Assembly (NCBI GenBank): GCA_963813025.1
Contig: CAWEXO010000014.1
Location: 352,001-416,000 of the forward strand
Length of the DNA stretch: 64,000 nt
From: an uncultured Verrucomicrobiae bacterium
Lineage (GTDB): Bacteria > Verrucomicrobiota > Verrucomicrobiia > Chthoniobacterales > JAFAMB01
Direction: 5' to 3'
Shown one piece after another: positions 3,394-53,312 of this stretch. Below the pieces are notes generated by a model. It ran no database searches, was not told where the DNA came from, and saw only the letters and a program-made list of their open reading frames with translations. How positions within the stretch are numbered: the stretch's first letter is position 1; each line of letters starts with the position of its first letter. The position numbers and the translations under genes are program-made.

Positions 3394-3621
3394 GTAGCGC
3401 GGACGGCCTCGTCCGTACTCTTGTGGCTGCGCCAGCGCACGGCAGGTTTCCTTTTGCTCCCAGGACACGTGAAGTAATGCATCAGGCTTTGGCGCGTGGT
3501 TGGCCACTCGCCCAAGAGTACGGACGAGGCCGCGTCTGTCGGACTTTGGTCATCTGTAGCTCGCGCAATCGAGCTAAGGTTCGAGACATGTCCCAAAGCG
3601 TCTTTGGTCCTGCGCCGGTAG
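3394..3621. repeat. Cluster of GTAG-type palindromic repeats (left flank of the IS110)
   Basis: GTAGCGCGGACGGCCTCG at 3394 (also at about 51870, and inverted at 5201-5219 and 14631-14649). 20-bp IR 3404-3423/3513-3532. Segment 3578-3621 is homologous to 46010-46054. Confidence 0.75.
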
Positions 3622-3636
3622 ATACGGTCTTGGATG

Positions 3637-4647
3637 TCAAGGGCATTGGTTTAAGGAATGGCGGGCCAGGTTAGGGTTGTAGGGTTGTTGGTGAGCGAGA
3701 ACACCGAAGGCGATGTGCAGGAGTTTTCGCATGACGGCACCGCGGATAGCCAGGGAGTGGAGCTTGCGCGACTCGAGACCTGCGGCCCATTGCTGGATGG
3801 GTTTGCACCAGCGGCGAGCAACGGCGGCCGGCAAATAGAGTGCTTTGCGCAGGAAAGCGTTGCCGATTTTGCACAGGGTGGTTTTGCCGTAGAGCGAGAC
3901 ACCGGAACGGAATTCAGAAGGAGTCAGCCCAGCATAGGCCGCCAACTGCCGAGCCGATTGGAACTCTTTACCGGCCAGCTCGGCCAGCAGCTTGGCGGCT
4001 GTGAGCTGGGCAATGCCGGGAATAGAGCACAGCAGTTGGCTTTGGCGGCTTAAAGCCTGATCAGCCGCGACTAAGCCGAAGATGGCCGACTCCAGCTGAG
4101 CGATTTCTTTCTTGAGCTGGGCGAGTCGTTGGCCACGCTGTTGGCTGACAAGCTCGGGCAGCGCAATTGGGTAAGGGTCTTTTTTCACCCGGTTCTGTTC
4201 CCGGATGAGCTCGCCAACCCGGCTTTCGCGCTCCCGCACCAGCAGTTTGAATTCTTCCTCAAGGGGGCGCAGCGGCCGAGTGGCCAGTGGTTTTCGCTCC
4301 AGACAAAACTGGGCAATGATGGCCGCATCAACCCGATCATTTTTGGTGCGGCGCAGGACCGAGAAAGCAAAGTATTTGACTTGGGCGGGATTGAGCACGC
4401 TGACCGCCAAGCCTGCTTGGTGCAGAGCGGCGATCAATCTCTTCCCGTAGACCCCGGTGGCTTCCAGGGCGAAGTGGATCTGGGAGAGCGGCCAAGAGCG
4501 GGCCTGGAGTTGGGCTAAAAATGCTCCAATGCCGGTCGCATCATTGCTGAACTTTCCCCGCCACAGGCGAGTGCCATTCTTGGAGAGCAGGCAAAAGTCA
4601 AAGCTTGCTTTTGCCATATCAATACCCATGCAGTAGCGTTTTTTCAT
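3637..4647 (-). CDS. IS110-family DEDD recombinase/transposase, 336 aa
   Basis: RuvC-like DEDD residues GIDMAK, LEATG, RTKNDRVDA; C-terminal SIPGI...AYAGLTPSEFRSG (catalytic Ser motif) and GNAFLRKALY. Likely ATG at 4647. Confidence 0.95.
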   Translation of the reverse strand: MKKRYCMGIDMAKASFDFCLLSKNGTRLWRGKFSNDATGIGAFLAQLQARSWPLSQIHFALEATGVYGKRLIAALHQAGLAVSVLNPAQVKYFAFSVLRRTKNDRVDAAIIAQFCLERKPLATRPLRPLEEEFKLLVRERESRVGELIREQNRVKKDPYPIALPELVSQQRGQRLAQLKKEIAQLESAIFGLVAADQALSRQSQLLCSIPGIAQLTAAKLLAELAGKEFQSARQLAAYAGLTPSEFRSGVSLYGKTTLCKIGNAFLRKALYLPAAVARRWCKPIQQWAAGLESRKLHSLAIRGAVMRKLLHIAFGVLAHQQPYNPNLARHSLNQCP

Positions 4648-4699
4648 CAGAGAGGAATTCGCGTTGAATTGGTTCTTTGTTTGATGAAGCGCTTGGGCG

Positions 4700-4928
4700 C
4701 GCGCCTGCTGACAGAGCCTTGTGAACACGGGCTTATGTTCCAACCCTGTTTGGAACGGCCTAAGATACGGTACGGTCTTATGCAGGTGCGGCACGAGGAA
4801 GGGTGGACTAATCTACCGGACAGGTCCTACCGACCTTTGGGCGAGGCAGTTTTCCACCCTCCTCGGCCAAGTTCTTCACTTCCAGAGTTCCGCCCTTGCG
4901 GGCGGCTTTAAAAGGGAAAAAAAATTGG
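4700..4928 (-). ncRNA. Predicted IS110 bridge RNA (5' hairpin, target-binding loop, donor-binding loop)
   Basis: 5' hairpin at 4890-4905. Target loop closed by the 4794-4807/4853-4865 stem, with guides CTCGCCC (4839-4845) and CCGGTAG (4813-4819). Donor loop closed by CCTGC/GCAGG (4782-4786/4704-4708), with guides ACCGTATCT (4763-4771) and ACAAG (4718-4722). Ends are approximate. Confidence 0.82.
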
Positions 4929-4945
4929 TGGGGCAAGGTACAAGA

Positions 4946-5062
4946 GCGAAAATTTATTCGAGCCTTAGCGAGAACTTGTTTGAGCCGTCTTCAGTGTGAC
5001 CTGCCCAACGCCCGGCTCAAACGAGTCTTCGCCGAAGGCTCAGATGAATTCTCGCCTTACCG
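4946..5062. repeat. GTAG palindromic repeat family A (remainder of the copy interrupted by IS110)
   Basis: GCGAAAATTTATTCGAGCCTTAGCGAGAACTTGTTTGAGCCG ... CGGCTCAAACGAGTCTTCGCCGAAGGCTCAGATGAATTCTCGCCTTACCG forms imperfect inverted arms. Confidence 0.85.
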
Positions 5063-5369
5063 ATTTTGGGATGTTGCGAAACATGCTCTAAATTTTCGCC
5101 CCACCGACACAGGACAGTGCGGCAATCTGAGACGATCTCTAACCGCTTGGGCGACCAATCGCTTGGGTGGCGTGCTACAGATTTCCAAAGTCCGACACGC
5201 CCGAGGCCGTCCGTGCTACCTCGCCTCTGCGGGCCGCGGGCCGAGGGTGATAGTCTAGTGGTCCTTTGCCAAATTGGATGAAATCGGGCGATCGTAATTC
5301 TCCAGATAACCACCGATAATTAGGTATTTCGGTTGAAATCTCTGGCGGCCAGCATGAACTCCTTAGGAT

Positions 5370-14330: not shown

Positions 14331-14649
14331 CGGGCGTGTCGGACTTCGGTTTCTTGTTTGGCAGAGCCAATTTATCGTTCGGGCGCTATTCATCGGCAAA
14401 AAATCGGCGAATGTCCCCAACGTGGTCTTGTCTGACGGTCGGTAGGGCGAGAATTCATCCGAGCCTTCGGCGAGGACTCGTTCGAGCCGGACGTTGGGAT
14501 TTCGCCGCGCCCAAAAACGGCTCAAACAAGTTCTCGCCTGGCGCTCAAATGAATTTTCGCCCTACCGATCGTGTCCGGTCGCGAAACAAATTACAAAAAT
14601 CGTACCGACGTGCTCCAAAGTCCGACAGACCCGGGGTCGTCCGCGCTAC
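14331..14649. repeat. Nested repeat cluster: intact family A palindrome (14440-14567) inside GTCGGACTT/AAGTCCGAC arms
   Basis: CGGTAGGGCGAGAATTCAT...ATGAATTTTCGCCCTACCG; outer arms at 14331-14348 and 14615-14649. Confidence 0.85.
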
Positions 14650-42054: not shown

Positions 42055-42245
42055 TTAGGGCGAGAATTCATCCGAGCCGGACGCTGGGGATCGCCAACCG
42101 GGCGCCTCAAACAAGGTTCGAAGGCTCGCACCCGGCGGTCGGAGGTTCCGAGACACCCCCGGGAGTTGCCGTCACCAACAATCAGCTTCCGAGACGGCTC
42201 AAACGAGTCCTCGCTGAGGCTCGGATGAACTTTCGCCCTACCGGA
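42055..42245. repeat. Repeat family A copy
   Basis: TAGGGCGAGAATTCATCCGAGCC ... CGGCTCAAACGAGTCCTCGCTGAGGCTCGGATGAACTTTCGCCCTACCGGA. Confidence 0.85.
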
Positions 42246-46009: not shown

Positions 46010-46202
46010 AGGTTCGAGGGATGTCCCAGGGTGTCTTAGGTCCTGTGCCGGTAGGGCGGAAAATTTATTCGAGCCTTCGCGAGAACTTGTTTGAGCCGGA
46101 CACTTGGTGAGCCACCCGCTCCAGATGACTCCGCCTTCGCCAAGGCTATGGCGGACACGTCCAATAAGTTCTCGCCTGGCGCTCGAATGAATGTCGCCCT
46201 AC
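46010..46202. repeat. Repeat family A copy with flank homologous to the IS110 insertion site (empty site)
   Basis: GGTTCGAGGGATGTCCCAGGGTGTCTTAGGTCCTGTGCCGGTAGGGCGGAAAATTTATTCGAGCC aligns with 3578-3621 joined to 4946 onward. Confidence 0.88.
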
Positions 46203-53025: not shown

Positions 53026-53312
53026 GGTAGGGCGAAAATTTATTCGAGCGCTAGCGAGAACTTGTTTGAGCCGTCTCGGGTGTGGCGCGAAGGACAAAGC
53101 GGCGGTGGGAAGGACCGACAGGAGCCGGTCCCTACCGCTGCGGGGCGATCAGCGCCCGGTAGGGAAGGACCGACTGGAGCTACGTGCCGTTGTCGCGCTC
53201 TTTCAGAGCTGGGCGCTCTCTTATCCGTGTTCCTAGGCCTGCGGCCTAGGCTTTCTTGCATCGCGCCTTCGGCGCTCTTTCGCGCTGAAAGCGCCAAGTC
53301 GCACGCACTCCA
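53026..53312. repeat. Composite repeat cluster: family A arm (53026-53073), family D (53107-53137), family B (53175-53312)
   Basis: Each unit matches copies elsewhere in the window. Confidence 0.8.

Follow-up and report, generated by a model that had tools for sequence, protein, structure and literature searches.

An IS110-family element inside a composite host repeat

Within the window (by which we mean the whole stretch of 64,000 nucleotides analysed), a comparison of all copies in the genome (G000) placed the boundaries of an insertion sequence (IS) at 3622..4942 on the minus strand, giving an element of 1,321 bp that lies between two CT cores and whose ends are identical across all full copies. 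A span of 3578..5062 had been given in the first-pass annotation; the IS does lie inside it, but 3578-3621 and 4945-5062 are host repeat. The element encodes a DEDD recombinase of 336 amino acids (3637..4647, minus strand), in which a profile search on 3640-4650 found both PF01548 and PF02371 of Pfam, which scores above the cut-off of the NCBIfam model NF033542, and which aligns with IS621 at E = 2.3e-46. Both the DEDD RuvC-like domain and the Tnp domain with its catalytic serine are present, and the counterparts of the IS621 catalytic residues (D10, E62, D104, D107 and S248) are intact and conserved. Judged by its sequence, the element is a member of the IS110 family, within the IS621-type group.

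The recombinase gene is bordered by a long non-coding left end (4648-4942) and a short right end (3622-3636). Of the 25 longest among 32 inverted repeats, none pairs one end of the IS with the other; a short CT core is present at both ends, and empty sites carry a single copy of it. Sequence and copy comparison place the core of the right junction, which is the AG of GTAG on the plus strand, at 3620..3621 and that of the left junction at 4943..4944 (both minus strand), bearing out the earlier claim that the IS sits in a GTAG repeat, with the break at the CT opposite this AG. Beyond the cores, the host repeat contributes a right target arm, ACCGG (3615..3619, minus strand; found at 12 of 12 right junctions), and a left target arm, TTTCGCT (4945..4951, minus strand), in which T replaces the usual C beside the core, as seen at one of 13 left junctions; this is the TCGCT that had been reported next to the core.

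The IS interrupts a composite repeat (3517..5217) that measures ~340-370 bp when empty and has 48-nt inverted outer arms (3517-3564 and 5170-5217). Its first REP end is occupied by the IS; the second end of the inverted doublet (5050..5063, plus strand) now has TT as its core and ACCGA as its right arm, and a third REP end (5094..5107, plus strand) now has the core CC. In a sister of this composite repeat, a derivative of the IS on contig C12 occupies the third end, which there carries ACCGG. The composite repeat in the window is framed by a second GTAG palindrome family, here called family B: one member lies at 3394..3415 (plus strand), and it has inverted partners close to 3513-3532 and 5197-5224. 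The genome contains 179 family B ends at no more than one mismatch. Repeats similar to family B surround RAYT-like genes other than those described below, at C5:183910-187140 (L002) and C14:329317-332538 (L003) of G000.

When rejoined, the flanks of the IS align, as had been noted, with the empty copy at 46010-46100 (78 identities in 88 columns), and closer empty sisters lie elsewhere in the genome, where 66 matches span the junction, the best at 95.6% over 344 bp. The repeat-end 12-mer is matched six times in the window at up to one mismatch, against 0.58 matches expected by chance. Several named empty copies had been said to suit the left guide of the element better than the occupied site does. 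They do so, with 5-6 matches out of 7 against 4 out of 7, but only the site at 42231..42244 (plus strand) combines the better left arm with the full right arm ACCGG, which makes it the sole empty site in the window with a consensus left arm and a full right arm. The right arm reads ACCGA at 14452 and 14555, the two ends of an empty inverted REP doublet (14439..14568), and ACCCT at 53037. The empty copy of the earlier comparison (46048..46061, minus strand) has the full right arm (5/5), and its left arm matches at 4/7, the same as the occupied site.

A predicted bridge RNA in the left end

The left end of the IS folds more stably than shuffled sequences (z = -3.3 for 4690-4900), and the parts of a predicted bridge RNA can be delineated there, all on the minus strand. 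These include a 5' stem-loop (4890..4906), the six pairs of which are found in 16 of 16 sequences and are all invariant, and a target-binding loop (4790..4868, drawn from this fold and a consensus fold) that comprises an outer stem, a left guide, an inner hairpin (4822-4836) and a right guide. The putative left target guide, CCUCGCCC(A) (4838..4846), matches the left arms of the junctions, and the putative right target guide (4811..4819), a 7-nt CCGGUAG with the handshake bases AU, is complementary to the core plus ACCGG; both covary in relatives. The left donor guide, ACCGUAUCU (4763..4771), equals the last seven bases of the right end plus the core, and the right donor guide, GU[UC]ACAAG with the handshake bases GC (4716..4726), is complementary to the core plus the start of the left end and is split as in IS621, its register being the one we infer. 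Both donor guides fit the element's own ends and vary little among relatives. In a consensus fold of 16 relatives the stems were kept but, because they are nearly invariant, there was little covariation (at 3 of 46 pairs); the guides were paired with each other in this fold. An Rfam search returned one chance match only.

No promoter was found when the linear sequence was scanned. Two putative promoter halves on the minus strand could, however, form a promoter only in a circular form of the IS: TTGACA (3635..3640), the TTGAC of which is kept at this place in relatives, may act as a -35 half, and TACCTT (4935..4940), as a weak -10 half, would then lie 17 nt from it across the circle junction. 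This IS110 element is very probably steered by a guide RNA of its own.

We infer the steps of expression, circle formation and catalysis. By analogy with IS621, and from the -35 and -10 halves, a circle would join the right end of the IS to its left end across the CT core, assembling the promoter. The donor loop of the bridge RNA made from the left end would hold the circle junction and its target loop a host GTAG REP end, with TCGCC paired on the left and CT-ACCGG paired on the right by the 7-nt right guide. The recombinase would then insert the IS at the core, so that a CT remains on either side of it.

Copies of the element occupy one position in the repeat

The genome assembly (4.4 Mb in 16 contigs, 80% complete) contains seven intact copies of the IS. 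A further copy has lost 77 bp, another is split by a different element, and four are diverged, internally deleted derivatives. Every one of the 13 left junctions has TCGC(C/T)-CT, and CT-ACCGG is present at each of the 12 right ones, in agreement with the earlier prediction of a single position and one orientation within the repeat; a thirteenth match to the right-end 12-mer, at C13:611517, lay outside every element match and was dropped as chance. The left flanks are repeat-derived in 12 of 13 cases, the remaining left junction lying in unique DNA that still matches the guide. Two of the derivatives share their deletion breakpoints at different sites, which suggests that the deleted derivatives moved in trans.

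The window copy differs from the consensus of the IS at 4 of 1,321 bases. Shared SNPs among intact copies (on C14, C8, C11, C13 and C4) form a mosaic that no single tree fits, which suggests recombination between copies or mixing during assembly. At C4:5754-5894, 141 bp of the bridge RNA region survive, joined to an empty sister repeat through a short sequence common to both; this remnant is probably a deletion product. Other insertion elements interrupt the copy at C9:67400-68850 and truncate the repeat to the left of C11:733732.

The target repeat and RAYT-like genes

The target repeat, a GTAG palindrome, has 308 ends in the genome at up to one mismatch. Among the 74 inverted pairs shorter than 400 bp that these ends form, 49 span 120-129 bp. 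The first three Y1 matches in the genome were considered as the cognate RAYT and set aside, as the target repeat does not flank them. A tblastn search with the proteins of relatives found three near-identical RAYT-like genes that have the target repeat on both sides (C14:454609-455082, C15:124761-125234 and C11:605018-605458) and that score 60-68 bits against NF047646, for which the cut-off is 80. The copy on C11 has an altered C-terminus. A gene in the related genome G015 reaches 80.3 bits against the same model, and the repeat motif lies on either side of it, too.

Two of the 13 IS copies lie in repeats beside RAYT-like genes. Insertion of the IS parts the GTAG, on one side, from the hairpin, on the other; given what RAYT proteins require of their substrate, such a split would disable it. 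The repeat had been described as lineage-specific, a description that is too narrow: its motif is family-wide and is present in four of five relatives tested, from two genera (in G001, G007, G015 and G023; not in G012).

Guides and targets in relatives

Close relatives of the IS were found in 6 of 42 other genomes of the family at E 1e-70. We parsed 29 loci at 45-79% identity out of at least 102 listed, leaving aside those of ~40% identity (L087-L140, except L089). In G015, which has the same repeat motif, the right guide places an A opposite position 13 and the right junctions read ACCT in six of six cases, as against 10 of 99 empty sites (p = 5e-6). The right guide of G023, ACGGUAG, goes with a target arm ACCGT, and that of G012, CACAAAG, with TTGTG at seven of seven distinct right junctions; 16 empty copies of the G012 target are present. 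Among the relatives, 14 of 21 scorable right junctions match their guide at all five bases, and the other seven match it imperfectly, at 2-4 of 5. Mismatches are found in L069 (2/5), L075 (3/5), L081 (4/5) and four copies with a GCUAG guide (3/5), and in the left arm of L067.

When the ten distinct right guides were permuted (a set that leaves out the window, the G012 type and one other row), 43 of 50 target bases matched, against 29.7 (p = 3e-5); for nine left guides, with two registers allowed, the figures were 48 of 63 against 38.3 (p = 2.5e-4), and the kinship among relatives means that both p-values overstate the significance. The junctions in this genome and the covariation of guide and target in relatives support the earlier claim that an RNA directs the element to one site in the repeat, in one orientation.

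Some features of the guides recur. The right guide reads GCUAG for GGUAG in several separate lineages (L006, L012, L015, L018 and L027 of G015; L065; and C9:218161 and C4:5754-5894 of G000), and the readable targets still have C at the facing position, so that C faces C. The left guide seemingly works in two registers that are offset by a single base (L061, L065, L072, L068, L078 and L079; L006 and L064). At L071, L073, L074, L142 and the G012 loci, the CT core is retained and the target ends are GGAG or AAAG instead of GTAG.

The right guide and the choice of site

The empty sites in the genome allow the chosen repeat ends to be compared with those available. Of 249 empty sites reading TCGCC-CT-AC, 95 end in ACCGG, compared with 12 of 12 occupied sites (Fisher p = 1.5e-5), and under a stricter definition of the repeat 87 of 205 empty sites do so (p = 5.5e-5). 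At position 2, the left arm carries the C of the guide in 6 of 13 occupied and 13 of 100 empty sites (p = 0.008), a count in which two of the six left flanks are identical over 101 bp and may not be independent. Positions 1-2 of the commonest left arm are mismatched with the left guide; at the window site, position 7 is mismatched as well. The natural 7-nt right guide would explain which repeat ends get occupied, and the main determinant of site choice is this extended right guide, which was absent from the first-pass annotation. The right guide of IS621 pairs with four target bases, and longer natural guides in orthologues and a gain in specificity are described in the available part of the IS621 study (PMC11208160).

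In all likelihood, the element is an IS621-type bridge recombinase whose bridge RNA guides it to the ends of GTAG REPs. Were the site picked by the recombinase protein or by REP structure alone, the guide-like matches would be incidental; all sites in this genome do have one short sequence in common that a protein could read, but among recombinases 49-79% identical the targets shift with the guides, including single-base shifts within one repeat family, which makes such a reading very improbable. A requirement for both guide pairing and a target hairpin, with the REP stem-loop as a second gate, has a precedent in ISPpu10, as far as the accessible text of that report goes (10.64898/2026.03.19.712850). 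It would fit the repeat origin of 12 of the 13 left flanks, the position of the left arm on the 3' side of an imperfect palindrome, and the left flanks of several relatives, which fold with the arm paired. We nevertheless regard it as unlikely: occupied flanks fold no more stably than empty ones (medians of -3.5 and -2.9 kcal/mol for 13 and 100 sites respectively, p = 0.65, a comparison of low power in which most of the empty sites are repeats too), the window site's own hairpin is weak (-1.7), and one left junction lies in unique DNA.

Genomic context of the sites and the variant base beside the core

With guidance by the bridge RNA as the preferred reading, the context of the sites can be considered. 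By a crude ORF test, 9 of 95 empty perfect sites fall under a long ORF, compared with 372 of 500 random positions. The idea that the repeat offers a safe harbour holds as a tendency, from which two of the occupied junctions depart. Once rejoined, 4 of 12 occupied sites lie under an ORF of at least 200 amino acids, and one of these was inspected. There (C13:239139-239996), the right junction meets a conserved gene where a homologue has its start codon, and no in-frame start is left in the gene; this suggests a rearrangement or a half-match event of the kind described in the available portion of 10.64898/2026.08.31.748434. The gene is of the secreted type, and an ATG in the right end of the IS is in frame with it. 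This copy and the one at C11:733732 have 101 bp of identical left flank.

Tolerance of an off-consensus base at position 7 of the left arm is plausible, and is put no higher because the T of the window site could have arisen after insertion. That the T predates the insertion is more likely, given that the IS is young and that four empty sites with T exist. Later mutation of a site that had the consensus C at insertion, with no tolerance at position 7, is a real but lesser possibility. This repeat copy does have other private changes, including in both of its other cores, and most of its sisters carry C; in IS621, moreover, the complex was kept in a state preceding strand exchange when the handshake A paired with T at position 7 of the target, according to the part of PMC11208158 available, and such targets might therefore be disfavoured. 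Against this, the IS is off its consensus at 4 of 1,321 bases while its flanks are ~4% off their nearest sister, so that most of the flank changes probably preceded the insertion, and four empty sites have the T variant, versus 87 with C, and one of the four belongs to another copy of this composite repeat.

Two candidates for an empty allele of the locus were rejected. In G001, which belongs to the same genus, the two flanking genes are adjacent, with neither repeat nor IS between them, and this genome cannot serve as a source of the empty allele. In contigs from one DNA sequencing run, which contained 36% of the words, the flanks are joined and the consensus base is present; these contigs do not reach the flanking genes, and the joined form is most simply a sister repeat.

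Relation to known systems

The closest parallels are with IS621 of Escherichia coli, which, in the available parts of its descriptions (PMC11208160, PMC11208158), shares with the window element the domain pair, the catalytic residues, the CT core, a left-end bridge RNA with a 5' stem-loop and two loops, AU handshake bases following the right target guide, a right donor guide that is split and insertion at the CT of CTAC in REP elements. The window element differs in its REP family, in its left guide and in having a natural right guide of the full 7 nt rather than 4 nt. The Pseudomonas elements ISPpu10, ISPpu9 and ISPa11, as far as they are covered in the accessible text of PMC1525189, PMC12288879 and 10.64898/2026.03.19.712850, are likewise IS110 elements with all copies at one REP position, a two-base end repeat and a mostly intergenic location. 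In contrast, the strong conserved target stem-loop of ISPpu10 was not seen here in a folding comparison of low power, and non-autonomous forms in this genome are internally deleted copies, not separate small-RNA modules. With the GTAG REPs of RAYT systems, as portrayed in the available part of PMC3733652, the target repeat shares an imperfect palindrome preceded by GTAG, an abundance of ~300 ends in each genome, inverted doublets that mostly span 120-129 bp and copies on both sides of RAYT-like genes, whereas the RAYT-like genes of this genome fall below the NCBIfam cut-off and three of them are close copies.

IS110 insertion at one base of a REP has been published for IS621, ISPa11, ISPpu9 and ISPpu10 (PMC1525189 and PMC11208160, in their accessible parts). 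REP targeting by IS110 elements is thus already known, and the present element shows it with an unusually clean natural match of a guide to the sites chosen. Our literature searches for IS110 with bridge RNA and RAYT, or for Verrucomicrobi IS110 with bridge and REP from 2024 on, found nothing, although the natural-target tables of PMC11208160 may include this clade. Occupied and empty repeat variants provide a clean natural test set for control of site choice by a 7-nt right guide, which parallels the right guide engineered in IS621 for higher specificity. The element also adds a clade of bridge recombinases that look active, with more than 100 relatives at 64-81% identity among the matches listed. 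The natural guide variants of this clade, its two left-guide registers and its tolerated mismatches should be useful for predicting off-target rules.

The host of the window element is, to judge from relatives, probably a soil Verrucomicrobium. We tentatively propose, as a broader reading that we hold to be possible though somewhat doubtful, that this soil IS110 clade repeatedly reprograms its bridge RNA, tracking different families of RAYT-type palindrome (with GTAG, GGAG and AAAG ends) and even picking different flank variants within a single shared family through the 7-nt right guide, with each insertion splitting GTAG from its hairpin in a way that would remove the RAYT substrate. If true, RAYT, REP and RNA-guided parasite would form a natural three-way system in which the evolution of guides can be read against that of repeats, and the recurrent G-to-C change in the guide may tune activity. 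At L025, a locus of G012, the left junction shows the opening bases of the left end three times in tandem.
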